Assembly: GCA_965200255.1 (NCBI GenBank)
Contig: OZ241371.1
Location: 2,187,288 to 2,251,287, forward strand
Reading direction: 5' to 3'
Source: Longimicrobiales bacterium
Lineage (GTDB): Bacteria; Gemmatimonadota; Gemmatimonadetes; Longimicrobiales; Gaopeijiaceae
DNA length: 64,000 bases
The translations under genes and the position numbers were made by a program. Position 1 is the stretch's first letter. Every line of letters starts with the position of its first letter. Below the pieces are notes generated by a model. It saw nothing but the letters and a program-made list of their open reading frames with translations, had not been told where the DNA came from and did no database searches. This document shows, in pieces, positions 3,894 through 20,842 of the stretch.

Positions 3894-5444
3894 CTCAACA
3901 TCGCCGACTACTTCCTGGACGACCGCGTCGCGGAAGGCCTGGGCCATCGGGTCGCCCTGCGCACCCGGCGCACGACCGTTTCCTATGCCGCGTTGCAGGC
4001 GCGCGCCAACCGTTTCGCCAATGCCCTGCGGGACCTGGGCGTGCGGCCCGAAGAACGGGTGCTCATCGCGCTCCCGGACACCCCCGACTTCGCCGCCGCC
4101 CTATTCGGCGCGCTCAAACTCGGCGCCGTCGGCGTCATGGTGAACTGCTTCCTCGGCGAGCGACGAATCCGCGAGCTGTACGACTACACCCGCGCCTCGG
4201 CCGTCGTGCTCGACGCGGCCCGTCACGAAGTCTTCCTCGCCGCCGCCGCCAACGCGAGCCACGCGCCGCGCCTCCTCGTTCTCCAAACCCCCGACGGAGA
4301 CGCCCGCGTCAACGCCGCCGCCCCGCGCTTCGACAACTTCCCCTCGCACTCCGACGACCCGGCCATCTGGCTGTTTTCCGGGGGCACCACGGGCCTGCCC
4401 AAAGCGGTCGTGCAGAGCCACGCGTCATTCGTCAACTCGACCCTTTGCTACGCCCGCCAAGTCATTGATTACGGGCCGGACGACATTACCCTCTCGGTTC
4501 CCAAACTACACTTCGGCTACGCCACCGGTTCCAACCTTTTCTTCCCGCTTGCCGTGGGCGCGTCCGCCGTCCTCTTCTCCGAACGCTGCACCGCCGACGA
4601 GCTCTTCGCCCAGATCGCGCGACACCGTCCCACCATCCTGATCAACGTACCCACCATGGTCAGCCACATGGTCTCCCACCCCGACGCCCATCGCCGCGAC
4701 CTGACCTCCCTCCGCCTTGCAACCTCCGCAGGCGAACCGCTCCCGCCCTCCCTGCACCGCCGCTGGAACGACACCTTCGGCGTCGAGCTGCTCGACGGTC
4801 TGGGCACCGCCGAAATGTGGCACGTCTTCATCTCGAATCGGCCCGGCGACGTACGTCCCGGCACCCTGGGCGCCGCCGTCCCAGGCTTCAAGGTGCAGCT
4901 GTGCGACGACCACGGCCGCCCGGTGCCCCACGGCGAGGTCGGCCGCATGCGCGTTCGCGGACAATCGCGCGCCCACGGCTATTGGCAACGGCCCAACGCC
5001 ACCCGACGCGCCTTCGCCCACGACTGGTACGTATCCGGCGACATGATGACCCGCGACGAGCAAGGCTACTTCACCTACCAGGGCCGCGACGACGATCTGC
5101 TCAAGGTCGCCGGCAAGTGGTTTTCCCCACGCGAAGCCGAGGAGTGCCTGCTCAAACACCCCGATGTGCGCGAAGCCGCGGTCGTTGGGGTGGAGAATGA
5201 AGACGGCCTTGTCGTCCCGGTGGCGTTCGTCGTGCCAAATCGGGCCGCAGCGTCACATTTGAGCGGGCGAAACGACGACCCTCCCGAACCCGGCAACGCG
5301 TCCCTCCAGACGCACCTTCGCGCGCACTTGGCGTCCTACAAGGTCCCCCGCGCAATCCACGTCCTCGACGATTTCCCTCGTACTCATCTCGGCAAGGTCG
5401 ACCGCGGCGGCCTCAAGCACATGGCGCGGTTGAGCGGCGGGTAG
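3867..5444 (+). CDS. AMP-dependent aryl/acyl-CoA ligase (benzoate-CoA ligase-like)
   Basis: Distal 525 codons of ORF 2289..5444: WLFSGGTTGLPKAV AMP-binding motif, YVSGDMMTRDEQGYFTYQGRDDDLLKVAGKW, PRTHLGKVDR. An alternative ATG lies at 3885. Confidence 0.85.
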   Translation: MDHIIPMDRLNIADYFLDDRVAEGLGHRVALRTRRTTVSYAALQARANRFANALRDLGVRPEERVLIALPDTPDFAAALFGALKLGAVGVMVNCFLGERRIRELYDYTRASAVVLDAARHEVFLAAAANASHAPRLLVLQTPDGDARVNAAAPRFDNFPSHSDDPAIWLFSGGTTGLPKAVVQSHASFVNSTLCYARQVIDYGPDDITLSVPKLHFGYATGSNLFFPLAVGASAVLFSERCTADELFAQIARHRPTILINVPTMVSHMVSHPDAHRRDLTSLRLATSAGEPLPPSLHRRWNDTFGVELLDGLGTAEMWHVFISNRPGDVRPGTLGAAVPGFKVQLCDDHGRPVPHGEVGRMRVRGQSRAHGYWQRPNATRRAFAHDWYVSGDMMTRDEQGYFTYQGRDDDLLKVAGKWFSPREAEECLLKHPDVREAAVVGVENEDGLVVPVAFVVPNRAAASHLSGRNDDPPEPGNASLQTHLRAHLASYKVPRAIHVLDDFPRTHLGKVDRGGLKHMARLSGG

Positions 5445-5445
5445 C

Positions 5446-8400
5446 ATGGCCGCAACAGCGACGGCGGGCGTCTACGAGGGCATCCACAACGAGCAGGAGT
5501 TCTACAGCAACCATTACCTCGCCGAGTTCCTGGGCAAGGACATCCAGGAGACCGTCAAGCGGTGGACCGCCGAGGGCGCCGCATCGGGACAGCCGCCGCC
5601 CCACGCGGCCTTGGGCAAGCTGGCCGCCGAGTTCGCCCGCTCCCGCGCTCGGTTCGCCGAGCCGGCGGGCCGCAGCCACGCCACAACCCGCGACTCCCGC
5701 GAGGCCCAACCAAGCTTCGCCGCCGGGCACGCCATCGGGAAACGCCTCGCCCTCCAAAACGCGTGGCACCGCCAGCTGCTGGACGTCCTGGGATACGATT
5801 GGAGCCCACGCGACCACCTCCTCGACGACGGCGTCGACATCCCCATCCTGGCCAGCGCGACGGCATCGACCGGCGGGGCCGCATCGCGCGGCAACCCCGA
5901 CCTCCTGGTCATCGGCGCGCTCGACCCCTCCACGGACGACCCCAGCCCGCTCGATCTCCGCCCCCTGCGCCAACAGTTTCGCAGCGAAGCCCCGCCCCCG
6001 GACGACCTGTTGCGGGAAGATTGGGAGCGCATCGTCACCCGCCGCGTCTTCGCCCAGGACCGTCCGCCACGCTGGGTTCTGCTCCTGTCTTTCGGCCAGG
6101 CATTGCTGATCGAGCGCGGCAAGTGGTCGCACGGTCGCCTGTTGCGCTTCGATCTCGCCGAGATTCTGGGTCGCGGGGACGCCGCCGCCGTCAAGGCCGC
6201 GGCCGTGCTGTTGCACCGCGAGTCGCTGGTTCCGGCGTCGGGTTCCGGGCCGTCGCTTCTGGACGAGCTCGACGGCAACAGCCATCGCCACGCGTTCGGG
6301 GTCTCGCAGGACCTCAAATACGCCATGCGCGAGTCGATCGAGCTGATCGGCAACGAGGCCATACGCTACCTGCGCGAAGTGCGGCACGAGCGGGTGTACA
6401 ACCTCGACGGGGACTTGGCCGACGCGCTTGGGCGCGAATGTCTCCGCTACATGTACCGCCTCCTCTTCCTCTTCTACATCGAAGCGAGGCCCGAACTTGG
6501 CTACGCGCCGCTGAACTCGGACGCGTACCGCAAGGGATACGGCCTCGAGCGACTGCGCGACCTGGAGATGGTCGAGTTGGCCACGCCGGAATCGCGCGAC
6601 GGCTTCTACTTGCACGAGAGCGTGCGCATGCTTTTCCGCCTGCTGTCGGAGGGGTTCGACGGCGATCGCTGGGGCGGAACCCGCGACCTGTTCGGGAACG
6701 TGGAACCCCTCCAAATCGGTTTCTCGATCCGCGCGCTCGACAGCGCCCTGTTCCGCGAAGGATCGACGCCGCTGCTCGACAAGGTGAAGCTGCGCAACCA
6801 CATACTGCAACGGGTGATCCGCCTGCTGTCGCTCAATCGTCCGGTCAAGAGCGGCAAGAGCAGCCGAATCCGGCGGCGCGGGCGCATTCGTACGCGCACC
6901 TGGGCATCAACCAGCTGGGATCGGTCTACGAATCGCTGATTGCCTACCGGGGCTTCTTCGCCGAGCAAGACTTGTACGAGGTCAAGAAGGCCGGCACGAC
7001 CCCCGATCCGCTGCACAGCGCGTGGTTCGTGTCCGCGACCGACCTCGACGAATACCGCGACGACGAGAAGGTCTACTATCGCGACGCGGACGGCCGCCGC
7101 CGCTTGCGCATGTACAAGAAAGGCACGTTCGTCTACCGCCTGCAGGGCCGCGACCGCGAGAAATCGGCCAGCTACTACACGCCCGAATCGCTGACGCGCT
7201 GCGTGGTCAAGCACACGTTGAACGAGCGAATAGCCGACGACACGCCCGCCGACGAGATCCTGCGCCTGACGGTGTGCGAGCCCGCCATGGGGTCCGCCGC
7301 CTTCCTGAACGAAGCGGTCAACCAGTTGGCCGAACGCTACTTGCAGCGAAAGCAGCGCGAGCTTCGGACCAGGATCGAGCACGAGGACTACCCCGACGCA
7401 CTGCAACGCGTACGCCACTACATCGCCGACCGCAACGTCTACGGGGTGGACCTGAATCCGATGGCGGTCGAGCTTGCCGAAGTCTCTCTGTGGTTGAACT
7501 GCATTCACCGGGACGGCCACGTGCCCTGGTTCGGCTACCAGCTCACCTGCGGCAACTCGCTGGTGGGCGCAAGGCGCCAGGTTTATCCGGTGGATCAGGT
7601 GCAAAAGCAGAAGGGGCAGAAGAAGGCCGACCTTTGGTTCAACCACGCCCCGGACCGCGTGAATCCCGCTTTCGATATGCGGCGGCCGGAGAGCACGGTG
7701 TACCATTTTCTGCTTCCCGACCATGGCATGGCGAGCTACAAGGACAAGGCGGCGAAAGCCCTCGAACCCGCCCATTTCACTCGCATCGGCGCATGGCGCA
7801 AGACGTTCTGCAAGGCGTTTTCGGCGACGGACGCGGCCGAGCTCGAGCGTCTCTCGGACGTGGTGGACAAGCTGTGGAACCTGCACGTGAAACAGCTCGC
7901 GCGCGATCACCTCGAGACGGAAGACACCCAACTCGTGTGGGGCCAGCCGGACCCCGAGCGCCCTCGGCGCACGCCCAACGCGTGGAAGGACCGCATTCGC
8001 GATCAGGGGATCTTCGCGGAGGGCGGCGCGGTGGCGAGTCCGTACCGCCGCCTCAAGCTGGTGATGGACTACTGGTGCGCGCTGTGGTTCTGGCCGATTG
8101 CGGAGTCTGATTTGCTGCCCAGCCGGGACGAGTTCCTGGACGAGCTATCGCTGATCTTGACGGCCGACGCGAGGCGAGAGGACCAGCCCGAGCAGATCGA
8201 GATGCTGTTCGGCGAAGAATACGCGGAGCACGGCCGCGAGATGGCCGAGCGGGTGGTGGACGAGGCCGGGATGCTGGACTTGGCCGAGCTGTTCGCCCGC
8301 TCCCCGCGCCTAAGCCTGGTGGACGAGCTGGCCGCGCGGCACCGGTTCCACCACTGGGAGCTCCACTTCGCCGACGTGTTCTACGGGACGGGGGAGGACG

Positions 8401-10515
8401 GGAAGGTGCGGGGCGGCTTCGACGTGGTCCTGGGGAACCCGCCGTGGGTGAAGGTGGAGTGGAAGGAGAGCGGGGTGTTGGGAGACTATCGTCCGTTGGT
8501 GGCGATTCGGAAGTACCGGGCGGCGCGGATTGCTGCGATGCGGAGCGACGCGTTCGAGGAGCGCGCCGGGTTGCGGGACGCCTGGTTCGAAGAGATGGAG
8601 GGCGCGAGCGCCATGCAGGCGTTCTTGAACGCGGTGCAGAACCACCCATTTCTCCGTGGCCAAAAAGCCAACTTGTACAAGTGCTTCGTGCCGCGGGCGT
8701 GGATGATTACGGGCGAAGACGGGGTGGCGGGGTTGCTGCATCCCGAGGGTGTGTATGATGACCCGAGCGGTGGCGTTTTCCGGGAGGCATTGTATCCACG
8801 GTTGCGGTCACACTATCAGTTCTTGAACGAGTTGAAACTGTTCGAGGAGGTGGACCACCACACCAAGTTCAGCGTCAACGTCTACGGCAGGGCGTTGACG
8901 ACACCGCGGTTCAAGCATATCGCCAACCTCTTCGCACCTGCGACCGTTGACGCCTGTCTTGACCACAACGGCCAGGGACCTGTGCCGGGTATCAAAGACG
9001 ATGACAACAAGTGGAACACCGCTGGCCATTCACACCGTATTGTCAAGGTCGATGTCGATGGCCTTGCCGTGTTTGCGACGTTGTACGATGCGCCGAACAC
9101 GCCGGCGCGCCGTGCACGGTTGCCCGCCCTGCATGCCGAGACGTTGCTGCGAGTGCTGCGCAAACTTGCCGCACATCCCTTGCGGCTCGGCGACTTGACG
9201 AAGGAGGATTTCACTGTGTCGCAGCATTGGAATGAAACGATTGCCCAACGTGACGGCACCATCCGCCGCAGAACCCGGTTTCCAGAGACCGCGCCCGATT
9301 TGGTGTTCTCGGGCCCCCACTTCTTCGTCGGCAACCCGAGCTACAAGACGCCGCGCCGGACCTGCACGCTGAGCAGCCACTACGATGTCCTGGACCTCAC
9401 CACCGTGCCGGACGACTACCTGCCACGCACCAACTACATCCCAGCGTGCACACCCACCGAGTACGCACGGCGCACGCCCCGCGTATCGTGGATCGAGCCC
9501 GGCGAGGCGCCGCCCGGCGAGGCATCGCCCAGTGAGGCGCCGCCCGGCAAGGCACCGCTCGGCGAGGCGCCACCCGGTAAGGAAAAATCGCGCAAGGTCA
9601 CGGACTACTACCGCGTGATGAATCGTGAGATGGTAGCCCCTGCCATGGAACGCACGCTCATCCCGACGCTGATTCCAAGGGAAGCCGCACTGATCCACAC
9701 GAATGCAGCCACCGCATTTCGCCGAGCGGGCGAAGGCGTGGACTTCGCCGCCCTCACGATGTCCACCGTCCTCGACTTCTTCATCAAGAGCACCGGAACC
9801 GGCAATGTGAACCTCGCCTGGCTCTCCCGTCTTCCCCTCCTCACCCCCGACACCCCTTCCGGCCTCCGCGCCGCTCTACGTCTCCGCACCCTCCTGCTCA
9901 ACTGCCTCACGATTCACTACGCCGAGCTCTGGGACGAGCTCTACGATCCCGCCTTCATCAGCCGACCGCTGGACCAGGGACGATCCCCGCCTGCCATCTC
10001 ACCATTTCACGGACCTTGAAGCCGAATGGTCGTGGTTCACCCCGCTGCGTACCGACTTTGCGCGCCGTCAGGCCCTCGTCGAAATCGACGTACTGGCCGC
10101 CATGGCGCTCAATCTCACCCTCGACGAGCTCCTGACCCTCTACCGCGTCCAGTTTCCCGTCCTGCGACATTACGAATCGGACACCTGGTATGACGCGAAC
10201 GGTCGCACTGTATTCACATCCTCCAAGGGACTTCCCGGCGTCGGCCTCCCCCGCACGGCGCGAAAAGGGGACACCGCATACGGCCTCCGCACGCCCCACC
10301 GCAGCGACACCGGCATCGCCCTCGGCTGGAACGACGTGCGGCACCTCGCGAACGGCGTCGTCACCCGCACAATCGAAGACGACACCCTGCCCGACGGCCC
10401 CTTCGAGCGCACTATCGAGTACCACGCCCCCTTCGACCGCTGCGACCGCGAGGAAGACTACCGCACGGCCTGGGACGCCTTCGAGCGACGGTTCGGGACG
10501 GGGAAGTCGCTCTGA
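5446..10515 (+). pseudogene. giant Eco57I/PglX-like gamma-class N6-adenine DNA methyltransferase, interrupted by two frameshifts (~6865-6885 and ~9955-9970)
   Basis: Three + strand ORF pieces join into ~1,690 codons: 5446-~6880 (frame 1), ~6882-~9965 (frame 3), ~9967-10515 (frame 1). Motifs, in order: EQEFYSNHYL; SYAHLGINQLGSVYESL; YYTPESLTRCVV; motif I CEPAMGSAAFL; motif IV VLGNPPWVKVEW; RRQALVEIDVLAAMALNLTLDELLTLYRVQFPVL; DTWYDANGRTVFTS. The pseudogene call is provisional because the indels could be assembly errors. Confidence 0.7.
9501..9575 (+). repeat. in-frame 5 x 15-nt tandem repeat (GEAPP/GEASP/SEAPP/GKAPL/GEAPP) inside the methyltransferase
   Basis: Read directly: ggcgaggcgccgccc-like units at 9501, 9516, 9531, 9546 and 9561. 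Confidence 0.9.
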
Positions 10516-10679
10516 TGCAACGGGATACGACCCAGACATAGCTTTCCGAACCACCGCCTGCAAGTCCATCGCCGCCCAAGGACATCGCGCGAAACAACGG
10601 GCCGCCAAGGACGAACCACGGCGAGAACTCGAACGAGCGGGCCAAGGAGAGATACGGCAGGCCACGCTGCGAAGACATC

Positions 10680-11093
10680 ATGGCGCGCGGGATCAGAACG
10701 CCGCTAGAATACAAGGACCATCCCATCGACTTGTTGAAGGAGGCCACCGACATGCACAGCACCGCCGCTGCCTACCGCCAGTCCCTCGACGATCTGATGA
10801 ACCAAAGCCGCGAGCAGGGGATCCGCCAGGGCCGCGAGCAGGGGATCCGCCAGGGCCGCGAGCAGGGGATTCGCCAGGGCCGCGAGCAGGGAATCCGCCA
10901 CGGCGAGAAACAGAGCTTGGTGCGCCTAGCCACGTTGAAGTTCGGACGGGACGCGGGTGAAGCGTTTTCGAACTTGGTCGGCAGCTCCAGGGGAGCGGAT
11001 TTGGACGGCTTGGCCGCCGCGATTCTGGAAAGCGAATCGGCCAGCGCGTTGCTCGACCGCGCCAGGAATCTGCCCGGTCAGGCTGCCCCGTAA
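10680..11093 (+). CDS. stand-alone Rpn C-terminal-domain ORF (137 aa) with REQGIRQG x4 expansion
   Basis: ATG ORF. LEYKDHPIDLLKEATDMHSTAAAYRQSLDDL...KFGRDAGEAFSNLVGSSRGADLDGLAAAILESES..LLDRARNLPGQAAP is nearly identical to the C-terminus of the neighbouring full-length Rpn. Whether it is expressed is unknown. Confidence 0.5.
   Translation: MARGIRTPLEYKDHPIDLLKEATDMHSTAAAYRQSLDDLMNQSREQGIRQGREQGIRQGREQGIRQGREQGIRHGEKQSLVRLATLKFGRDAGEAFSNLVGSSRGADLDGLAAAILESESASALLDRARNLPGQAAP
10704..11093 (+). repeat. segmental duplication, copy A (rpn 3' region)
   Basis: Near-identical by eye to 11879-12172, apart from the 24-bp repeat expansion. Weaker similarity continues ~30 nt past both stop codons. Confidence 0.85.
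10809..10904 (+). repeat. in-frame 4 x 24-bp tandem repeat (cgcgagcaggggatccgccagggc)
   Basis: Read directly: units at 10809, 10833, 10857 and 10881. The first two are identical; the last two carry 1-3 substitutions. Confidence 0.9.
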
Positions 11094-11254
11094 GGCATCG
11101 GCTTCCAAAGCCCTGAAGCCACAGGATACGACCGAGGAACAAATGTCTTGCGCGCATCCAAAATTAGTCCCATCCAGCTATGGCAACGCCCCTGACTTTC
11201 CTGCACCGTTAACGGGACAAGCGCGACCCTCGCGCTCCGAACGTCAGGGAGCCC

Positions 11255-12172
11255 ATGTACGACGTCATCCTGAAGCGGCTGTTCGCCAACCCCATTATGG
11301 TGGAAGAGACCATCCGAAGTCACTTGCCCGACTGGGCCGAGCGGTTGGATTTCTCCACGCTGCGGCAGGACCCGACCGAGCTCATCGGCGAGAAAGCCCT
11401 CAAGCGCCTACCCGACGTCGCGTGGAGCGCTCGCTCGAAGGCGGACGACACCGACTTCCTGCTCCTGCTTGAGTTTCAAGGCGCTTCGGATCCCGACATG
11501 GCGGCGCGCACGACGGCCAGCAAGGTCCTGGCCGTCCAGGCGCATCGCCGCAAGCAACGATCGGACAAGCAGCGGCCCCCGCGCAATATTGAAATCGAAG
11601 TGGTCGTGCTGTATCATGGCGCGGTCCGATGGACAGCCAGCAGGGGCATGGACGAGATCGTGCGGGGGCGGCGCGTCGACAGGTATCACTTGCTCGATCC
11701 GATGCTGCCCGAGGCGTCCCGCCTGACCCGACGGCACCTGCCGGAACTGTTTCTGATCACTTCGCGCGCCCGGACCGTGGGTGAATTCGGGTTCCCGTTC
11801 TCGGAAATCGTTCGAGTGGTGGACGAGGTTGGCGATCCGGAGCTTGAGAAAGCCGCGTTGCGCGCGCTCAAGGAATTGTTAGAGTACAAGGACCATCCCA
11901 TCGACTTGTTGAAGGAGGCCACCGACATGCACAGCACCGCCGCTGCTTACCGTCAGTCCCTCGACGATCTGATCCGCCAGGGCGAGAAACAGACCTTGGT
12001 GCGAATGGCGGCCATGAAGTTCGGACGGGACGCGGGTGAAGCGTTATCGAACTTGGTCGGAAGCTCCAGGGGAGCGGATTTGGACGGCTTGGCCGCCGCG
12101 ATTCTGGAAAGCGAATCGGCCAACGCGTTGCTCGACCGCGCCAGGAATCTGCCCGGTCAGGCCGCTCCATAA
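11255..12172 (+). CDS. Rpn family recombination-promoting nuclease / putative transposase (PD-(D/E)XK, YhgA-like)
   Basis: 305 aa: MYDVILKRLFANP..., then DVAWSARSKADDTDFLLLLEFQGASDPDMAARTTASKVL (the D...EFQ core typical of the family), then a C-terminal helical domain. Confidence 0.8.
   Translation: MYDVILKRLFANPIMVEETIRSHLPDWAERLDFSTLRQDPTELIGEKALKRLPDVAWSARSKADDTDFLLLLEFQGASDPDMAARTTASKVLAVQAHRRKQRSDKQRPPRNIEIEVVVLYHGAVRWTASRGMDEIVRGRRVDRYHLLDPMLPEASRLTRRHLPELFLITSRARTVGEFGFPFSEIVRVVDEVGDPELEKAALRALKELLEYKDHPIDLLKEATDMHSTAAAYRQSLDDLIRQGEKQTLVRMAAMKFGRDAGEALSNLVGSSRGADLDGLAAAILESESANALLDRARNLPGQAAP
11879..12172 (+). repeat. segmental duplication, copy B (rpn 3' region)
   Basis: Matches 10704-11093 but carries only a partial repeat unit (atccgccagggc). 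Confidence 0.85.
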
Positions 12173-12392
12173 GCTACGGCTCCGAGGTCCCTGAGGTACG
12201 CATCCCGGCGCCGGTAGAGCCGCACGCCCATGGACAGCCTGTTGCGTGACGCCTTCGACGGCGCTCCTACGAGCCGTCCGCGGTAACATGGTGGCGCGTT
12301 TTCCGCTACGCTAATGGGGTCATTTTCTCGCCACCTCCCCGCTCCGTCGCCCACCACGCCCTGCAACCTACCGTGCCCCAGCCCCCGACGCC

Positions 12393-12953
12393 ATGAACCA
12401 CCCTCTCACCATTCCCGTCCTCGTGGGGTCAGTGCGACGGGGGCGCCAGTCGATCAAGGCGGCCCGCTTCGCCAGCCAAAGGCTCGAACGAGCCGGCGCA
12501 TGCGCCCCGCTGCTTGATCTGGCCGAGATCAACCTCCCGATCATGGAGGAGCGTCTCGGCAAGCGCGACGACCCACCCGCGGGGCTGGTCGGATTCTCTC
12601 AATCGATTCGCGACGCCGACGCGGTGGTGGTCGTCAGTCCCGAGTACAATGGGTCCATGCCGGGCGTGCTCAAGAACGCGCTGGACTACCTCTACGGGGA
12701 ATGGTACCGGAAACCGGTGGGAATTGTGACAGTATCGGGCGGCGGCTTCGGCGGCGTGCAGGTCCACAACCACCTTCAGCTGCTTTTTCTGCGACTGAAG
12801 GCGCTTCCCGTAGCGGGCATGGCCGTTTCTCAGGTTGCTCGCAGCTTCAGCGAGTCAGGCAAACCGACAAGCGACCGATACCTCAAGTCCTTCGCAGGCT
12901 TCATCGACACGTTGACCTGGTACGCGCGCGTGATCAACGCCGCAACGGAGTAA
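12393..12953 (+). CDS. NAD(P)H-dependent FMN reductase family oxidoreductase
   Basis: 186 aa: IPVLVGSVRRGRQS, VVVSPEYNGSMPGVLKNALDYL. Confidence 0.85.
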   Translation: MNHPLTIPVLVGSVRRGRQSIKAARFASQRLERAGACAPLLDLAEINLPIMEERLGKRDDPPAGLVGFSQSIRDADAVVVVSPEYNGSMPGVLKNALDYLYGEWYRKPVGIVTVSGGGFGGVQVHNHLQLLFLRLKALPVAGMAVSQVARSFSESGKPTSDRYLKSFAGFIDTLTWYARVINAATE

Positions 12954-12999
12954 GTAGACATGCCAGACGCCCTGCCTGCATTCAGCGGCCGCTAGACCA

Positions 13000-14547
13000 A
13001 TGGGATCGTTCTATCTCACGACGCCGATCTACTACGCTTCGGGCGAACCTCACTTGGGACACGCGTACACCACCATTCTGGCCGACGTTCTGGCGCGCTA
13101 CCACCGCCGGGCCGGAGACGACGTGCTCTTCCTCACCGGAACCGACGAGCACGGCCAGAAGATCCAGGAGGCTGCCGCGGAGCACGGCCTGACCCCTTTG
13201 GAACTCTGCGACCTCATGGCCGACCGCTTCAAGGCGGCCTGGGTCGAGCTCGGCATCTCCAACGATCGCTTCATCCGCACCACGGAGCCGGAGCATATCG
13301 CCGTCGTGAGCGCGCTGCTGGAACGCCTGTACGACAACGGGTTCATCTACGAGGCGGACTACGCGGGTTGGTATTCGGTCAGTCAGGAACGGTACTTCAC
13401 CGAAAAGGAGATTGGACCGGACCGCGTCGATCCCATCGCCGGCAAGCCCGTCACGAGGATTCGCGAGAAGAACTGGTTCTTCAAGATGAGCCTGTTTCGC
13501 GATCGTCTGATTGCGCACATCAAGGAGCACCCGGAATGGATCGTGCCGGCAACGCGCCGAAACGAGGTGCTCGGCTTCCTGAACCGACCGCTCGACGACC
13601 TTTCCATTTCCCGACCCCGCTCTCGGATCAGCTGGGGGATTCCCATTCCGTGGGATCCGGACCAGGTGACCTACGTTTGGGTGGACGCGCTCACCAACTA
13701 CGTGACAGCTTCCGGAGCGATTGATCCCGGTGCGCCCAGGGAAAAGCGAGGGTTCGGCGATCCCCTGCCGTCGCGCTGGCCGGCCGATGTTCACCTAATG
13801 GGAAAGGACATCATCACGACGCACGCGGTGTATTGGCCTATCCTGCTCATGGGGGCCGACTTGGCGTTGCCGCGGAAGATTCTCGCACACGGATGGTGGG
13901 TGGTCGGCGACACCAAGATGTCCAAGTCGCTGGGCAACGTGGTGGACCCCCTCGACCTGCGCAACGTCTATGGGACCGACGCGGTGCGCTGGTACCTGAT
14001 GCGCGAAATGGCCACGGGCCAGGACGCCTCGTACACGCCCGAGCGCTTTCTCATCCGATACGACGAATTGCGCAACATCTTCGGCAACCTGGCCCACCGC
14101 ACTCTTTCCATGATCAAGCGCTATCGGGGCGGTATCGTACCCGGGGCTCGCGACGACGGCCTCGAGGCGGAAACCGCGACCGCCCTTGCGGAATACCGAC
14201 GCGGACTCGATCGCTACCGACTCCACGAGGGGTTCGCGGCGGCCATGGATCTGGCTAGAGCAGCCAACGGGTTCATCGAAGGGTCGGAGCCATGGGCGCT
14301 CGCGCGGGACCCTCGGCGGGACGCCGACCTGGATCAGGTGCTCGCCACCTTGGCGCGCACGCTGGCCGTGTTGGCCTGCCTGTTCGAGCCCGTAACGCCA
14401 GCGAAGGCGGCCGAGCTGGCAACCCGGCTGGGTCTCGCCGAAGTCCCACATTTTGCGGACTTGGGCGACGTGCGCTTGGCCGGACTCCAGACCACCGTAC
14501 GGACGCCGTTGTTCCCGCGCGTAGACGCTGCCCGCGCGGAAGCTTGA
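13000..14547 (+). CDS. metG: methionine--tRNA ligase (short form)
   Basis: TTPIYYASGEPHLGHAYTT (HIGH region) and KMSKSLGNVVDP (KMSKS). Confidence 0.95.
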   Translation: MGSFYLTTPIYYASGEPHLGHAYTTILADVLARYHRRAGDDVLFLTGTDEHGQKIQEAAAEHGLTPLELCDLMADRFKAAWVELGISNDRFIRTTEPEHIAVVSALLERLYDNGFIYEADYAGWYSVSQERYFTEKEIGPDRVDPIAGKPVTRIREKNWFFKMSLFRDRLIAHIKEHPEWIVPATRRNEVLGFLNRPLDDLSISRPRSRISWGIPIPWDPDQVTYVWVDALTNYVTASGAIDPGAPREKRGFGDPLPSRWPADVHLMGKDIITTHAVYWPILLMGADLALPRKILAHGWWVVGDTKMSKSLGNVVDPLDLRNVYGTDAVRWYLMREMATGQDASYTPERFLIRYDELRNIFGNLAHRTLSMIKRYRGGIVPGARDDGLEAETATALAEYRRGLDRYRLHEGFAAAMDLARAANGFIEGSEPWALARDPRRDADLDQVLATLARTLAVLACLFEPVTPAKAAELATRLGLAEVPHFADLGDVRLAGLQTTVRTPLFPRVDAARAEA

Positions 14548-14589
14548 CCTGGGCGACGGCACCGGGTATCGTGTTGGGTTGACGAGTGC

Positions 14590-15555
14590 TTGGGATTCCC
14601 TTGGAGGTGCGTGATTAGCGGCAACAAAGGTAAATGGACGGTGCTCTTCCTACGAGAAGGAACCGATAGGATACGACAATTCTCGCCGTCCGCGTGGGTG
14701 GTGCGCCGCGGATTCGTGTTGGCGTGCGCGCTGGTTGGGTTGCTGGCCGGGGCGACCGGGTATTTCCTCTTCGACACTGGAGTTCGCGGACGCGCGGCGC
14801 TTCTCGCCCGCGAGAATCGCCTGCTCATGGCCGAGGTGGAGCAGATGCGCGCCTCGGTTTCCGAGCTGGACCGTCGAATCGCCGTGCTGGCGGAAAAAGA
14901 CCGCAGAGTGCGACTGGTTGCAGGCTTGCTTGAGATCGACGAAGACGTGCTCGACGTCGGCATCGGTGGGCCGGGCCTCGAATCAGCCAACGAGAGCGAG
15001 CTGTGGGCGTTGGACCGAGAGGCGTCCGAAGCCGCCTACGCGATTCGCTACGACCTGGCGTTCCTGTTGCGCAGGGCCAACCTGTTGAGCAGCAGTTTCT
15101 CCGAGACGGAGGAATCCCTGGAGGAGCGACGGGAACGCCTCAGATTCACCCCGTCCATCCTTCCGACCAAGGGACCGATTTCGAGCGCCTTCAACGTCAG
15201 CAGGCTGCATCCCGTCTTCAGGATCTACGCGCCGCACGACGGCATCGACCAGAACGCCGAGCGCGGCACCCCGTTCGTGGCCACCGCCGACGGCGTGGTG
15301 TCGTTCGCGGGGTGGAAGCCCGGCTTGGGCAACACGGTCGAAATAGACCACGGCTTTGGTGCAACTACGGTTTACGGTCACGCCTCCAAGTTGTTGGTGG
15401 CCGCCGGCGCCAGGGTGTGGCGCGGAGACGTGATCGGTCTCGTCGGCTGCACCGGCGTGTGCACCGGGCCGCACGTACACTACGAGGTCCACATCGACGG
15501 TCGCCCGGTCGATCCGCTGCGGTACGTGCTGCGCAGCATTCCAGGGACGGAGTGA
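14590..15555 (+). CDS. M23 family metallopeptidase (LytM/NlpD-like)
   Basis: HDGIDQNAERGTPFVATADGVV...GNTVEIDHGFG..TVYGHAS...GCTGVCTGPHVHYEV. The start is uncertain: TTG at 14590, or GTG at 14611 after GGAGG. Confidence 0.85.
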   Translation: MGFPWRCVISGNKGKWTVLFLREGTDRIRQFSPSAWVVRRGFVLACALVGLLAGATGYFLFDTGVRGRAALLARENRLLMAEVEQMRASVSELDRRIAVLAEKDRRVRLVAGLLEIDEDVLDVGIGGPGLESANESELWALDREASEAAYAIRYDLAFLLRRANLLSSSFSETEESLEERRERLRFTPSILPTKGPISSAFNVSRLHPVFRIYAPHDGIDQNAERGTPFVATADGVVSFAGWKPGLGNTVEIDHGFGATTVYGHASKLLVAAGARVWRGDVIGLVGCTGVCTGPHVHYEVHIDGRPVDPLRYVLRSIPGTE

Positions 15556-15653
15556 GTTAGCCAAGCTTTGCGTTCTTTACACGGAAGGTCTTCTGGGCTT
15601 ATTTTGGGCGTTCCGATATCCTCAAGCATTGCGTGAACTTCAGGGAGCAAGCA

Positions 15654-16427
15654 ATGACGCGACTGAAAAATGGCATCGTGCTGGCGGCGATTCTGGCACC
15701 AATCACCTTGGCGGCATGTGGTCCGGCGGACGTGAGCGTGTACGTGGCGCTCGGCGACGACGAGAACCCCGATCCACTCGACGCCGTAGAGGTGCGGCTC
15801 CTGCCGTACGATCGCGATCAGATTTTCGATTCTCTTGCGGCAGCGGCGACCGCGCCGGAGCCGCAGATTCCAGCCGATCTGCTGGCCGCCCAGGAAGAGA
15901 TCGCTGCGGCCCAGCAAGAGTGGAGAGACGCCGAGGATCGCTGGAACATTCTGCGGGACACTCTGAACACGCTCAACACGGCCTTGGAAGGCCTCAATCC
16001 AGGCGAAAGTCTGTACCGGGCGATCTATAACGAGTGGCAGGATCTTGAATCGGAGCTGAACCGCACCGAGGGACGCGTCGCCGCGCTGTTCAATACCTTT
16101 AACGAGCTGCAGCAGGCGGCAATCGGAAGGATGGACAGCATGAGGGCGGTGCAAGGCGACTGGGCAGACATGGCGTTCGAGGACTACGATCTGGTCCGGG
16201 CCGCAAGATTGGACGCGACGGGACTCGAGGAGCTCGCGGACACGACGGACGCAAACGGCATCGCGGACTTCCAGGACGGCGTCGCGCCTGGCATGTACTG
16301 GGTAAACGCTCGACACTCGCTGCCGTACGACGAGCTCTACTGGAACGTCGCGATTACGGTGACGCGCGAAGAGCCGCTGATCCTGCGCCTCATGCGAGAA
16401 AACGCCGAAGTTCGACCCATATTCTGA
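15654..16427 (+). CDS. hypothetical lipoprotein (coiled-coil-rich)
   Basis: ATG preceded by GGGAG. Signal peptide plus lipobox, MTRLKNGIVLAAILAPITLAAC. No recognised catalytic motif. Confidence 0.6.
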   Translation: MTRLKNGIVLAAILAPITLAACGPADVSVYVALGDDENPDPLDAVEVRLLPYDRDQIFDSLAAAATAPEPQIPADLLAAQEEIAAAQQEWRDAEDRWNILRDTLNTLNTALEGLNPGESLYRAIYNEWQDLESELNRTEGRVAALFNTFNELQQAAIGRMDSMRAVQGDWADMAFEDYDLVRAARLDATGLEELADTTDANGIADFQDGVAPGMYWVNARHSLPYDELYWNVAITVTREEPLILRLMRENAEVRPIF

Positions 16428-16433
16428 CCGCGC

Positions 16434-17075
16434 TTGGGGGGCGGCCAGGTCGTCGGGATTGTGCTCGCGGCGGGGTCGTCCTCGCGCATGGGCACTTCGA
16501 AGGCGCTGCTTGACGCCGACGGCGTCACGTTCGTGGCAAGACTTGTCGATGTGCTGCGTCGAGGGGGTTGTGCGCCGGTGATCGTGGTGACCGCTGCGGG
16601 GTCCGGGGCGCTACCAGCCGAGGTGGATCGGTGCGGGGGACTTCCCGTCGTGAACCCACGAGGCGCGGGGGGTCAGATCGCGTCGCTCCGCGTGGCCTTG
16701 GACCACGCGCGCGTTGGGGGCAATCCGTCCGGCTGTGCGCATCCGCCCGACGCGTTCGTGTTCACGCCCGTCGACAATCCCGCCGTGCGCGCTCGTACGG
16801 TCGACAAGCTGATTCGCGGATGGCGGCAATCGCGGCTGCCCATCGTGATGCCGAGGTATGGCAGCCAACGAGGTCATCCGGTGCTGGTCGACATGAGGAT
16901 CGTGGACGAGTTTCGCGAACCGGGCTTGCAGGAAGGCGCCCGCTCGGTGGTGCGGCGCGACCCCGCGCGCGTCCTTGAAGTGACGGTCGACGATCGCGGT
17001 ACTGTCGACGACATCGACACGCCGCGTCGCTATCGTGCACGGTTTGGTGCGAATCGGGGCCCCGGCCAAGCGTGA
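16434..17075 (+). CDS. MobA/MocA-like molybdenum cofactor nucleotidyltransferase
   Basis: VGIVLAAGSSSRMGTSKALL N-terminal nucleotidyltransferase motif, FVFTPVDNP. Stop overlaps the next start (GTGA). Confidence 0.75.
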   Translation: MGGGQVVGIVLAAGSSSRMGTSKALLDADGVTFVARLVDVLRRGGCAPVIVVTAAGSGALPAEVDRCGGLPVVNPRGAGGQIASLRVALDHARVGGNPSGCAHPPDAFVFTPVDNPAVRARTVDKLIRGWRQSRLPIVMPRYGSQRGHPVLVDMRIVDEFREPGLQEGARSVVRRDPARVLEVTVDDRGTVDDIDTPRRYRARFGANRGPGQA

Positions 17076-17917
17076 GAATCTCTGCGGCGCGGGTAGCCGC
17101 CCGGGTACTGGAAGCGCTCGAAAAGGGGGAACGCATTGTTACCGCCGTGGTCGTCGATGCGGCGGACCAATCGATGATCGGGCGGCGTTGGTGGCTTTGC
17201 GGCAGGCGCAGCCGGGGCACGCTCGGAAGCCTAGCATTGGACGCGGTGGTGGCCGCGGCGGCGCCGTCGCTCTTCCCCTCAAGAGAATCCCGAGGGGCGC
17301 TCAGTCGCAAGTTCAGGTATGGCGACGGAGACAAGACCGCCCTGGTCTACCTGGAGCTGCACGGTCCGCCCGCCAGGATGGTGATTGTCGGTGCGGGACA
17401 CATCGCGATCCCGCTGGCGCGGATGGGCGCCATGCTCGGAATGCGGGTGGAAGTGCTTGACGACCGTGCGCAATTTGCTGCGGCGGAACGGTTTCCAGAC
17501 GCCGACGCGGTGCGCGTGATTGATTTCCGCGATCCGTTTGCGGCGACCGCCCTCGGCCCGCCCGACCATGTGATTCTGGTGACGCGCGGGCACAGCTTCG
17601 ACTACGAATGCCTGGTGCGGCTGCTGCGTATGGAGGAGCCGCCCGGCTACATTGGGATGATCGGCAGCAGGCGGCGGGTCCGCGCGACACACGAGCAGCT
17701 CGTGCGCGAAGGCTTCACGATCACGCAGATGAAGCGGGTTCGGGCGCCGGTCGGGCTGGATCTTGGCGGGCAGACCCCGGCCGAGATCGCGGTTGCGGTG
17801 GTCGCGGAAATCATCCTGTTTCATGCGGGCGGAACGGGAGCGCCCCTGGTGGACAAAGAGCGCGTCGTGGAACGATTCTTTGGCGGTGCGGCCGATGCCG
17901 GCGTCGCACGCACCTGA
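17072..17917 (+). CDS. XdhC/CoxI family Moco-insertion accessory protein
   Basis: MVIVGAGHIAIPLARMGAMLGMRVEVLDDR Rossmann segment, YIGMIGSRRRV, APVGLDLGGQTPAEIAVAV. Confidence 0.85.
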   Translation: MRISAARVAARVLEALEKGERIVTAVVVDAADQSMIGRRWWLCGRRSRGTLGSLALDAVVAAAAPSLFPSRESRGALSRKFRYGDGDKTALVYLELHGPPARMVIVGAGHIAIPLARMGAMLGMRVEVLDDRAQFAAAERFPDADAVRVIDFRDPFAATALGPPDHVILVTRGHSFDYECLVRLLRMEEPPGYIGMIGSRRRVRATHEQLVREGFTITQMKRVRAPVGLDLGGQTPAEIAVAVVAEIILFHAGGTGAPLVDKERVVERFFGGAADAGVART

Positions 17918-17935
17918 CCGAGTCGAGGGGGAGAC

Positions 17936-18265
17936 ATGGACGAGAAGGAAGTGATTGCCCAGCTGGCCAGCTTGGCGGAGCCGGTGGTCCTGGCCACGAT
18001 TGTGTCCGCGAAGGGCTCGACCCCGCGCAAGACGGGTGCACGGATGCTGATCGGCCGTGAAGGGGTGATCGCCGGAACCGTCGGCGGCGGTTGTGGCGAA
18101 GGCGAGGTCATCGCGGCCGCTCAGGATCTCTTCGAGGGCGGGCCCCCCACGACGGTGCGGGTCGATCTTACGGACGACTTCACCTCGTGGAGCCCTGCAG
18201 TCTGCGGCGGGATCATGAACGTGTTCATTGAACAGGCGAACCCGGAGCGGTTCGGGGACCGGTAA
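17936..18265 (+). CDS. XdhC N-terminal-domain-only protein
   Basis: 109 aa: VLATIVSAKGSTPRKTGARMLI...GTVGGGCGE. RBS GGGGGAGA lies upstream. Confidence 0.75.
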   Translation: MDEKEVIAQLASLAEPVVLATIVSAKGSTPRKTGARMLIGREGVIAGTVGGGCGEGEVIAAAQDLFEGGPPTTVRVDLTDDFTSWSPAVCGGIMNVFIEQANPERFGDR

Positions 18266-18341
18266 CGTGCAGTCGGGGCGTCCGTGCGCCGACGCCGCGG
18301 CACTACCGGCGCCTCGGGCGTTGCCGCCGCCCGGGTCGTGG

Positions 18342-18863
18342 GTGGACATACGCTACCACAGGATCGAGCGACCCACCGAGACCTATCGGCAACTGGTCCT
18401 GGAAAGCGGCAATGCAGGAATTGTCACCTTCCAGTCACGAACGCCCATCGGTGCGCCGCTCCAGATTGGCGGCACCCCGATTCTCGAACCCGGTTCTCCG
18501 GTCGTGTGGTTCACCTTCCCCGGAGCATGGCACGATATCGGCCTGTTTCACCTTGCCGACGGGACGCCTACGGGGCTGTACGCCAACGCGTTGACCCCGG
18601 TTGAGTTCGCAGGACCCGCTACGTGGGAGACGACCGACCTATGTCTCGACGTCTGGATCCCGGCCGACGGCCCGGCGCGACTCCTTGACGAGGCCGATCT
18701 GGAGCAGGCCGAAAAGACGGGACTGATCCAGCACCAACTTGCCCGGCGGGCGCGGGAAGAATCCGTCGCCTTGTTGCGAGGTCACCGTGCCGGTACCTGG
18801 CCACCGGCCCTGGTGCAGGAATGGTCGTTGGCGCGGGCGTTGGCTCAAATGCCCGAACGGTGA
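18342..18863 (+). CDS. DUF402 family protein (FomD-like nucleoside phosphatase fold)
   Basis: Distal part of ORF 18228..18863: WFTFPGAWHDIGLFH...TTDLCLDVWI...LLDEADLEQA. A GTG start at 18342 is proposed; the upstream part overlaps the xdhC-N gene. Confidence 0.6.
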   Translation: MDIRYHRIERPTETYRQLVLESGNAGIVTFQSRTPIGAPLQIGGTPILEPGSPVVWFTFPGAWHDIGLFHLADGTPTGLYANALTPVEFAGPATWETTDLCLDVWIPADGPARLLDEADLEQAEKTGLIQHQLARRAREESVALLRGHRAGTWPPALVQEWSLARALAQMPER

Positions 18864-18876
18864 CGGGGCTGGCGGC

Positions 18877-19338
18877 CTATCCGGCGCGACTCCGCAGCCG
18901 CCCCACCTCGGGCACGGTCGCCGCAAACACCACCGTCATGAGGATCGCCGACGCGACGCAGTAGCGGCACCACGCCTGGATGACCATCGCCTCCAGGTAG
19001 GTCAGGTATGCGCTGAACAGCACGCCGGCCAGGGCTCCGCCAAAGAGGAGAAACGAAATCGCCCGCGAGTGGACGAACCGGCCCTGCAACCCTGCAAGCG
19101 ACAACGCCAACAGTGCCAGATACCCGGCAAACCCGATCGCGGACACGGGCACGGGCCCAACCCACGCATACTTTGACGACTGTACCAAGCTGCACGCGCC
19201 GCTGCCGCACGGCACCGGCGGCACCCACCCCAGGTTGCTGGCCATCAGAAAAAAGGCCAGAAACACGCCCACCAGAGACAGGACGGCCACCGCCATGCGG
19301 TTGACCGGCGGGCGGTTGACCGGCAGACCGGGCGCCAT
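18877..19338 (-). CDS. vitamin K epoxide reductase (VKOR) family membrane protein
   Basis: Multi-TM protein with CGSGAC and CRYC cysteine pairs. Start taken at the internal Met (MAPGLPV), so that it does not overlap dsbA. Confidence 0.8.
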   Translation of the reverse strand: MAPGLPVNRPPVNRMAVAVLSLVGVFLAFFLMASNLGWVPPVPCGSGACSLVQSSKYAWVGPVPVSAIGFAGYLALLALSLAGLQGRFVHSRAISFLLFGGALAGVLFSAYLTYLEAMVIQAWCRYCVASAILMTVVFAATVPEVGRLRSRAG

Positions 19339-19340
19339 GG

Positions 19341-19380
19341 TCAGTTGCCGGTGATCGCCGTCAATTGCCGGTGATCGCCT
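19341..19380. repeat. 20-bp tandem duplication of the dsbA 3' end
   Basis: tcagttgccggtgatcgccg / tcaattgccggtgatcgcct, 18/20 identical. The second unit contains the dsbA stop; the first unit forms the entire dsbA-vkor spacer. Confidence 0.85.
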
Positions 19381-20035
19381 CGACCGCCTGCTGGATGTCG
19401 ATGAACTGATACCCGCCGAGTCTTTGAGCGCGCCCACCGTCGTGATGCACGAAGATGGAGGGCGTACCGGTTACCCCCATCCGGATCCCCGCCAACTGAT
19501 TCGCCGTAACGACATCGGCCTTCATGTCGCTGTCGAGGCAGCTCCTGAAGGCTTGGGTGTCCAGTTCCAACCCTTCGGCCAAGTCGTTGAAGTGACCCAC
19601 CGGGCTGCTCGGCACGGACCATTCGCGCAAAGTACGGTAAACCTCGTCGTGGTAGTCCCAATAGCGGTCCTGGTCGCCGGCGCACCGAGCCGCGCGCGCC
19701 GCAAGGAAGGAATGGGGCAAACCGGCCGTCGGGAAGTCATGGTAGACGAACTTGGCTTGGCCCGTCTGGATATAGGCCAGGTCGACTTGCGGCTTGACCT
19801 GCGTTGCGAAGATCTGGCAGGCCGGGCATTGGTAGTTGCCGAATTCCATGATCGTGATCGGCGCGTTCGGGTCGCCATACACCACGCCTTGGGCCAGCGC
19901 GACAAGGTCCTCGTTGTCCAGCTCGCCAAGGTCAACCGGCTCGCTCGCGGCCGACCCGCTGCCCCGCATGGACATCCCTACGACCGCCAACCCGACAACG
20001 GCCACGACTCCGATGATGATGTAGAAGTTCTTCAT
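19361..20035 (-). CDS. DsbA-family thiol:disulfide oxidoreductase
   Basis: N-terminal TM/signal sequence and the thioredoxin active site FGNYQCPACQIF. Confidence 0.85.
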   Translation of the reverse strand: MKNFYIIIGVVAVVGLAVVGMSMRGSGSAASEPVDLGELDNEDLVALAQGVVYGDPNAPITIMEFGNYQCPACQIFATQVKPQVDLAYIQTGQAKFVYHDFPTAGLPHSFLAARAARCAGDQDRYWDYHDEVYRTLREWSVPSSPVGHFNDLAEGLELDTQAFRSCLDSDMKADVVTANQLAGIRMGVTGTPSIFVHHDGGRAQRLGGYQFIDIQQAVEAITGN

Positions 20036-20085
20036 GCCAGTCTGCTCCAGCTAGAGTTTGCGTCTGCCCCGCCGATGGGTCTGAC

Positions 20086-20799
20086 TCAAAGATAGCACGA
20101 CGAAAGCAGATTGATGACGGCGCGGGTGTCCCCAAACCCTGGCACCACATGGTCGGCGCCGGTCTCCCGCAGCTCGGCCTCGGAGAATCCGCCCGTCGCA
20201 ACCGCCACGGTCGCTGCCCCGTTCGCCTTCCCGCAGGCCACGTCCCGAGGCGTGTCGCCGATGACGACCGCGTCCTGGGTCCTGAACGGCCGCCCCCAGT
20301 GTTCCACGGCCCGCTCGCAAGCAATGCGGGGCAGCTCGTCGCGCATTTCGTGATCCGACCCGAAGCCGCCCACCGCAAAGTGCCGCCACAGACCTGCCGA
20401 ACGAAGCTTGAGCCGGGCGCCGCCCTTGACGTTGCCGGTCACCAGGCCGAGGTAAACGTCGCGGCGGGCCGCCAGGGCATGGATCAGGTCTCGAACGCCG
20501 GGCAGCACCGTAACGGGGTCGTGAGGAAGCTTCGCCTCCAGCCCCGCAAGGTAGCGCTCCCAGAAGGCCGGTTGCCGGGCGTTGATCTCTTGAGGATCGC
20601 GGCCCGCCGCCGTCAAGAGCTCGCGGAGGATGCGCGGGTCGGTCTTGCCCGCGAAGTCGTGGCGAGCGATCGGTCCCGTGGCGCCGAAGGTGGCCTGCAT
20701 GGCGTGGGCGAACGCCGTACGCCCCGGGCCGCCGGTCGTGAGGGTGCCGTCGATGTCGAAGAGCAGGAGCACGGCCTGGTGGGTTACGGGTATGCGCAC
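20086..20799 (-). CDS. HAD-superfamily hydrolase (phosphoglycolate phosphatase-like)
   Basis: LLFDIDGTL motif I, GLVTGN, VVIGDTPRDVACGKANG motif. GTG start. Confidence 0.8.
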   Translation of the reverse strand: MRIPVTHQAVLLLFDIDGTLTTGGPGRTAFAHAMQATFGATGPIARHDFAGKTDPRILRELLTAAGRDPQEINARQPAFWERYLAGLEAKLPHDPVTVLPGVRDLIHALAARRDVYLGLVTGNVKGGARLKLRSAGLWRHFAVGGFGSDHEMRDELPRIACERAVEHWGRPFRTQDAVVIGDTPRDVACGKANGAATVAVATGGFSEAELRETGADHVVPGFGDTRAVINLLSSCYL

Positions 20800-20842
20800 C
20801 GAAAGCGGCGAGACGCCGGGCTGGCCGCCGGGGCCCAGGATC

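Follow-up and report, generated by a model that had tools for sequence, protein, structure and literature searches.

A twice-frameshifted armB gene in a Gemmatimonadota chromosome, probably an orphan relic of an ARMADA Type II defense system

What is a giant DNA methyltransferase gene that stands alone in a bacterial chromosome and can be read only across two frameshifts? Such a gene lies at positions 5446 to 10515 of a 64,000-nucleotide (nt) stretch of DNA from a Longimicrobiales bacterium of the phylum Gemmatimonadota (contig OZ241371.1, positions 2,187,288 to 2,251,287). We call this whole stretch the window, and the features described below between its positions 3900 and 14547 are on its plus strand. 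An initial annotation, made from the letters of the DNA alone, had offered two explanations: a decaying remnant of a defense system, or an undescribed pairing of a methyltransferase with the Rpn-family genes downstream. Our analysis indicates that the locus is probably an orphan, inactivated copy of armB, a relic of the known ARMADA Type II system.

The gene is spread over three open reading frames (ORFs), 5446-6939 in frame 1, 5562-10019 in frame 3, and 10102-10515 in frame 1. The window has a G+C content of 62 to 70%, and in DNA of such high G+C the G+C at the third codon position (GC3) marks the true coding frame. A GC3 plot followed frame 1 to ~6900, frame 3 to ~9900, and frame 1 again to 10515. 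When the pieces 5446-6888, 6888-9962, and 9964-10515 were joined, they encoded a 1689-amino-acid (aa) protein with no internal stop codons. With the frame switches in GC3, this bears out the proposal that the three ORF pieces make up one giant protein. Translation and alignment to intact homologues assigned the first segment (5446-6888, frame 1, aa 1-481) to the N-terminal region, in which AlphaFold models suggest a restriction endonuclease (RE)-like alpha/beta domain (aa ~85-265) followed by helices. The second segment (6888-9962, frame 3, aa 482-1506) encodes the N6-adenine methyltransferase core and a variable region, and the third (9964-10515, frame 1, aa 1507-1689) encodes a conserved C-terminal domain and ends with the stop codon. 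All motifs that had been quoted for the catalytic core are present in the repaired protein. They include SYAHLGINQLGSVYESL and YYTPESLTRCVV, the S-adenosylmethionine (SAM) motif CEPAMGSAAFL (7275-7304), and GNPPW, with its NPPW at 8436-8447. In a database of 5.8 billion protein clusters, more than 5,700 proteins aligned end to end with the repaired protein. The best 120 of these were mostly uninterrupted, ~1630-1720 aa long, and 57-65% identical over 99-100% of the query. Therefore, the three-piece gene is real, far beyond what chance could produce.

ARMADA Type II is a four-gene anti-phage module, armABCD (Bell et al. 2025, PMC12458937). It combines a BrxHII/SNF2-like helicase (ArmA), a PglX-like methyltransferase (ArmB), a YprA-like helicase whose C-terminal part is a Vsr-type nuclease (ArmC), and a UvrD-like helicase (ArmD). 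Defense in E. coli needs all four genes; the ArmB substitution N971A, in the NPPW motif, abolishes it, and G605A weakens it (PMC12458937). A study of enterohemorrhagic E. coli (EHEC; island OI-172) confirmed the requirement for armB and its partners, and, across 426 E. coli genomes, it described ARMADA islands as conserved except for armB, which varies (PMC13463889). We found no methylation data for ARMADA in either paper. BLASTP aligned aa 12-1679 of the repaired protein with aa 5-1635 of ArmB from E. coli ATCC 8739, at 47% identity and 1449 bits. N998 of the window protein (in NPPW) aligned with E. coli N971, and G616 aligned with G605. The SAM-binding glycine and the NPPW residues were invariant in all 73 sequences of an alignment made from the window copy and 72 locus homologues. 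Judged by sequence, we assign the window gene as a copy of armB, the DNA methyltransferase gene of ARMADA Type II.

Profile models gave other names to the same protein. Pfam reported Eco57I (1.6e-13, 51.6 bits against a cut-off of 25.3) and N6_Mtase (4.6e-6), with MmeI_Mtase at 22.4 bits, under its cut-off of 27. The NCBIfam PglX models of BREX-1, -2, and -6 scored 22-27 bits against cut-offs of 400-900. Thus, the earlier label of "Eco57I/PglX-like" is sound as a description at the domain level, where Pfam finds Eco57I, but it does not extend to PglX of BREX. The DrmMI models of PADLOC matched the methyltransferase core alone (aa ~549-752; 9e-49, 164 bits). The top PADLOC model was REase_MTase_IIG (PDLC03614; 1e-268, 893 bits). 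However, PDLC03614 also scored 1.6e-276 on the armB gene of a complete armABCD operon in Enterobacter (locus L072), which is 87.7% identical to E. coli armB at the DNA level. Therefore, the PADLOC "Type IIG" label covers ArmB and simply predates ARMADA. A practical consequence is that PADLOC-DB v2, where PDLC03614 is named "Type IIG restriction enzyme-methyltransferase," will report ArmB genes as Type IIG restriction-modification (R-M) genes. What this locus offers is mostly a correction of that kind: the giant "solitary Type IIG/PglX-like" methyltransferase is the ArmB component of ARMADA II, which was first described in 2025.

We also examined the company that this gene family keeps. A scan of 185,579 species genomes gave 562 matched stretches, from which 80 loci were taken. 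Two metagenome loci were added to make a set of 82, and all neighboring ORFs were clustered. Sequence reached 3.3 kb or more upstream of armB in 69 loci, and 67 of these had ArmA (an SNF2 helicase of ~980 aa) upstream; in 50 of the 67 it was immediately adjacent to armB and on the same strand. ArmC (DEAD/Helicase_C/MZB [DUF1998], ~2100 aa) was downstream in 58 of the 63 loci whose sequence extended 7 kb or more past armB. Next came, in 33 loci, a UvrD-like helicase of ~700 aa. PADLOC and Pfam named these partners DrmD/BrxH-like, DruE-like, and GajB-like, and neither PglZ nor BrxC was among the recurrent neighbor families of the related loci. Among the 60 loci with adequate flanks on both sides, none lacked both ArmA and ArmC. 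A tblastn search with both Rpn ORFs of the window found no Rpn relative in any of the 82 loci. Therefore, the idea of a methyltransferase-plus-Rpn module is not supported.

Some of these loci were more loosely arranged than the strict order of genes that has been reported for ARMADA Type II. In six of the loci whose ArmB is most similar to the window copy (L001, L003, L004, L048, L070, and L079; 58-63% identity), armC was 5-8 kb downstream of armB, and the same was true of two loci with 53% identity (L007 and L012). Between armB and armC, L001 has toxin-antitoxin genes, Fic, and an AAA_15/DUF4435 ATPase, among others. The distance from armA to armB, with armA upstream, was 1-2.3 kb in L001, L004, L007, and L079. 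The ArmB match in L048 (Candidatus Multivorans sp. OZ245033.1, 10001-16477) covers 6.5 kb rather than ~5 kb, as two large pieces with ~1.2 kb between them. This gap could be an insertion element in armB.

Against this background, the surroundings of the window gene are bare. Searches by tblastn with representative ArmA, ArmC, and ArmD proteins found no remnants of them in the 64 kb, and a Pfam analysis of every sizeable coding-like ORF found no helicase. Pfam likewise found no PglZ, BrxC, Drm, or specificity gene, so that the absence of all these, which had been remarked on before, holds for the whole window. The order armA-armB-armC-armD is not found here. With no partner in the window, armB is solitary, unlike the gene in every one of the 60 homologue loci that have both flanks.

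We then located the two breaks in the reading frame. At frameshift 1 (6886-6889), 1 nt is missing between att (I481) and tcg (S482), and the frame changes from 1 to 3. Alignment with 40 intact homologues revealed that this splits a family-invariant motif, RRGRISYAQLGINQLG, which the window copy begins in frame 1, as RRGRI, and continues in frame 3, as SYAHLGINQLG. A 1-nt loss with this change of frame had been predicted, and that much was correct. However, it had been placed inside the G+C-rich cggcggcgcgggcgc, and the site is just 3′ of that sequence. Frameshift 2 (9958-9964) is one extra C in atcagCCgac (9962/9963), which returns the frame from 3 to 1. Here the predicted 1-nt gain agreed with both the homologue alignment and a paralogue in the same genome. 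It sits in a variable linker, across which the paralogue keeps one frame (YDPAFLSDRWTRDDP).

Long homopolymers are absent from both sites (no run exceeds 2-3 nt), as are simple-sequence tracts and slippery heptamers. Because the latter two are absent, we rejected programmed frameshifting and phase variation. A natural split point or hotspot at aa 481 was also rejected, because the ends of 119 fragmentary family members were spread evenly over aa 360-970.

The paralogue is a second armB on the same 3,147,279-bp contig, outside the window, with the protein products P0122 and P0248. P0122, the N-terminal product, is identical to the window copy at 493 of 497 residues and ends in the same out-of-frame tail, IRTRTWASTSWDRSTNR. 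Therefore, the paralogue has frameshift 1 too. P0248 (1164 aa) has no break at the site of frameshift 2; it reads through in one frame as AFLSDRWTRDDP and runs to the normal C terminus. Therefore, frameshift 2 is specific to the window copy. The presence of frameshift 1 in both copies means either that it is an inherited or converted mutation or that the same error was made twice.

The consensus of the window could be checked against three independent assemblies from other sequencing runs (L084-L086), which cover 12016-23726 (11.7 kb). There were no indels and at most one mismatch in each. From this we judge the window consensus to be accurate, so that one would not expect two indel errors in a span of 5 kb, and the frameshifts are probably real. 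With armB broken twice and armA, armC, and armD gone, the locus most likely represents a relic in decay rather than a system of a new kind. So the suspicion of a defense system remnant is supported as to decay, but the system is ARMADA Type II and none of those that had been named with it (Type IIG/IIL, BREX, and DISARM). A functional armB would be read in one uninterrupted frame, and this copy has two frameshifts.

Several observations weigh against a relic. The contig seems to have been assembled from a long-read metagenome, and assemblies of this type contain many homologues in fragments. Beyond the two indels, the coding sequence shows no damage: no stop interrupts its frame, its GC3 remains high, and the catalytic residues that we checked are all kept, as they are in all 73 aligned sequences. 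Where the window copy and the paralogue differ, one departs from the family consensus about as often as the other (16 versus 12 matches, P = 0.57). The second copy is known from P0122 and P0248 alone and not from its genomic context. Finally, the window includes 5.4 kb upstream of armB, and one homologue locus has ArmA 6.6 kb upstream. We also counted private substitutions at otherwise invariant columns. The window copy has 20, compared with a median of 3, but an equally isolated intact homologue has 26. The excess is explained by phylogenetic isolation, and it is uninformative about relaxed selection. Since degeneration has gone no further in the window copy than in the paralogue and the ORF is otherwise healthy, inactivation, if real, must be very recent.

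The same observations lend something to the explanation that both frameshifts are assembly or consensus errors. In that case armB would be intact and solitary, and it would either work as an orphan DNA methyltransferase or back up the other copy. The source contig is found only in metagenome-type records of NCBI/ENA, its sister assemblies have metaMDBG-style contig names, and 11 kb of a contig from this strain, covered 2×, contain 3 indels. These add to the splitting of many family members in such assemblies and to the lack of other decay in the ORF. However, the agreement of the window with three independent assemblies makes two errors in 5 kb improbable, and neither site has a homopolymer longer than 2-3 nt. 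The near-identical paralogue lacks frameshift 2, and frameshift 1 would require one error to have occurred twice. All of the long housekeeping genes in the window are intact. We therefore consider this explanation unlikely. No intact allele of more than 65% identity was among the best 120 matches from the 5.8 billion protein clusters. Exact-product look-ups of the four armB pieces and of the paralogue pieces returned no contig on record. Scans of JGI metagenomes, with patterns that tolerated either allele at frameshift 1 and frameshift 2, found nothing.

A different explanation starts from how the two copies differ. Their proteins are identical over aa 126-1068, except at position 510, where the start residue called for P0248 falls. 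Identity drops to ~82% over aa 1069-1500 and is ~97% after aa 1500. Comparison with the paralogue and the family conservation profile define aa 1069-1500 (8649-9944) as the variable region of armB, with 77 of the 88 paralogue differences. It takes in the least conserved block of the family and is most likely the target-recognition region. Two armB paralogues that differ almost only in their presumed recognition region fit the description of armB as the variable gene of ARMADA islands (PMC13463889). Within this region is an in-frame tandem repeat of 15 nt (9497-9582), which encodes 5.4 copies of an (A/E)PPGE unit. The paralogue is 15 aa shorter there, and the aligned homologues are without the repeat. 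The mosaic of identities points to a recent gene conversion or duplication between the copies, which would have carried frameshift 1 along.

Such a mosaic would also be expected if the window copy were a silent or archived specificity cassette. The paralogues would swap the variable segment through their identical flanks and so switch ARMADA specificity, possibly with help from Rpn, and frameshift 1 would be an artifact or a reversible off-switch. The proposed exchange can be likened to hsdS or pglX shufflons. The variability of armB in E. coli and the recombination-promoting nuclease gene next door are in its favor. However, with frameshift 1 in both copies, neither could be an expression locus unless that frameshift is an artifact. 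There is no invertase or integrase gene and no long inverted repeat at the locus, and Rpn was never beside armB in the 82 homologue loci. This makes the cassette explanation very unlikely. If true, it would give ARMADA its first described case of specificity variation by cassettes.

The N-terminal ~480 aa had been said to carry no catalytic motif that could be named, and our models refine that statement. The AlphaFold model of the whole region had a pLDDT of 82.6. A fold search with this 481-aa model gave no neighbor in the Protein Data Bank (PDB), and a PDB sequence search with a homologue matched no chain. The alpha/beta subdomain at aa 85-265 (nt 5698-6240) was modeled at a pLDDT of 91.8. 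Its best Foldseek match in the PDB was the nuclease domain of the Type IIL enzyme DrdV, which was marginal (E of 3e-3 to 4e-2, TM of 0.42-0.51), and it also matched the endonuclease-like protein TT1808. In the model, it is RE-like with D167...(D/E)223-R-x-K226. D167 is conserved in 63 of the 73 aligned sequences, an acidic residue at 223 in 72, and R224 and K226 in all 73, in a (D/E)-R-x-K spacing that is noncanonical. The modeled fold would be a feature of the whole ArmB family rather than of this locus, and we take it as a lead only. As a model, it demonstrates neither DNA cutting by ArmB nor that ArmB belongs to the Type IIG enzymes. An RE-like N-terminal subdomain goes unmentioned in the main text of the ARMADA paper (PMC12458937).

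This resemblance to DrdV, the Pfam Eco57I domain, and the top rank of PDLC03614 would all suit a stand-alone Type IIG/IIL R-M gene, with nuclease, methyltransferase, and specificity in one chain, that needs no partners and is simply frameshifted, but this is extremely improbable because PDLC03614 recognizes the armB of a complete operon just as strongly, the family is essentially never alone (0 of 60 loci), defense in E. coli needs four genes, the motif spacing is noncanonical, and the fold match is marginal.

We return to the relic of an ARMADA Type II armB, which is the explanation that we favor. By analogy with DISARM and BREX, ArmB of an intact system presumably marks host DNA, and its helicase-nuclease partners would act on DNA that is unmarked. 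The longest products of the window copy would be a 497-aa N-terminal fragment and a methyltransferase core truncated at both its N- and C-terminal ends. With such truncated products, this copy would be unable to defend and, most likely, to methylate. It would persist as a recent relic in a small defense islet, along with an Rpn module of the toxin-antitoxin type. The locus would then be a clear example of how a multigene defense system decays, with the helicase and nuclease genes gone and the methyltransferase gene lingering with two very recent frameshifts.

The islet, at 5446-12172, is located between metabolic and housekeeping genes of the Gemmatimonadota chromosome, with a CoA ligase gene on one side and FMN reductase and metG genes on the other. 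Upstream is an AMP-binding acyl-CoA ligase gene (3900-5444, with an approximate 5′ end; Pfam AMP-binding, 1e-77, and AMP-binding_C, 9e-17). Its stop codon, TAG, is at 5442-5444, and the armB ATG begins at 5446, so that they are separated by the 1 nt that had been reported. A deletion scar at this junction was considered and rejected, as the ligase C terminus is unlike ArmA C termini and short relics of partner genes are absent. A tRNA integration site was rejected because the window contains no tRNA. Further upstream, Pfam identified enoyl-CoA hydratase, SDR, and creatininase genes. The first housekeeping genes past the islet encode FMN reductase and methionyl-tRNA synthetase (metG; 12393-14547, by Pfam), and L084-L086 match the window there without a difference or indel. 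Downstream genes in the window encode, in addition to these two, an M23 peptidase, XdhC, GyrA, UvrA, LeuRS, transketolase, and others. The window GyrA is 89% identical to GyrA of Gemmatimonadota metagenome-assembled genomes, including the Longimicrobiales genome of locus L005. The XdhC_C (17072-17917) and XdhC_CoxI (17936-18265) domains are in separate ORFs, in the reverse of the usual order. This arrangement recurs in a related genome (L088), and so it is not a frameshift.

The downstream neighbors of armB are indeed of the Rpn family, as first noted: one full-length gene and one fragment with the C-terminal part only. The full-length Rpn/YhgA-like PD-(D/E)XK protein, of the recombination-promoting nuclease family, is encoded at 11255-12172 (Pfam PF04754, 2.2e-9). 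The other, at 10680-11093, is a free-standing ORF whose product corresponds to the C-terminal tail of the adjacent Rpn and no more; it is called as a gene in the public record. It forms direct repeats (D1/D4) with 11880-12173, at 89-97% DNA identity, and Tandem Repeats Finder (TRF) detected 4.1 copies of a 24-nt unit (REQGIRQG) at 10807-10904. Rpn proteins are anti-phage nucleases of the toxin-antitoxin type, in which the variable C-terminal domain is the antitoxin (Zhong et al. 2023, PMC10400941). The tail ORF resembles RpnS, the antitoxin with variable repeats of E. coli rpn, but in the window it stands as a gene of its own, upstream of the full-length one. The four independent contigs that represent this strain (L083-L086) all end inside or just past the Rpn 3′ repeat (window positions 11631-12660). 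This suggests that the repeat is present in multiple copies in the genome and breaks assemblies.

How does the window copy compare with the systems that it resembles? DrmMI of class 1 DISARM is likewise an N6-adenine methyltransferase of large size, encoded after an SNF2 helicase and together with a DUF1998/MZB helicase. However, the homologue loci have one DruE-like helicase of 2100 aa instead of DrmA plus DrmB, and a UvrD-like helicase stands in place of the PLD protein DrmC. With PglX of BREX there is a common broad class of architecture, and the ARMADA paper itself calls ArmB "PglX-like," but the PglX models score far under their cut-offs, and PglZ and BrxC were near none of the family members examined. 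The Type IIL/IIG enzymes DrdV and MmeI resemble the repaired protein, as modeled, in their succession of an N-terminal RE-like domain, a gamma-class N6-adenine methyltransferase, and a variable recognition region. They differ in that the repaired protein is under the cut-off for MmeI_Mtase and has a noncanonical acidic-lysine spacing, and its family depends on three helicase partners. ArmB of ARMADA Type II (E. coli ATCC 8739 WP_001229643.1 and NCTC 12900) differs from the window copy in the state and setting of the gene: the window copy has two frameshifts, is without armA, armC, and armD, is in a Gemmatimonadota chromosome beside Rpn genes, and has a second paralogue in the same genome. In other respects the two correspond. 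Their lengths are similar (1689 aa for the window copy and 1642 aa for ArmB), they have the N- and C-terminal domains and the SAM-binding and NPPW residues in common, and the homologues of the window copy sit in the order armA-armB-armC-armD.

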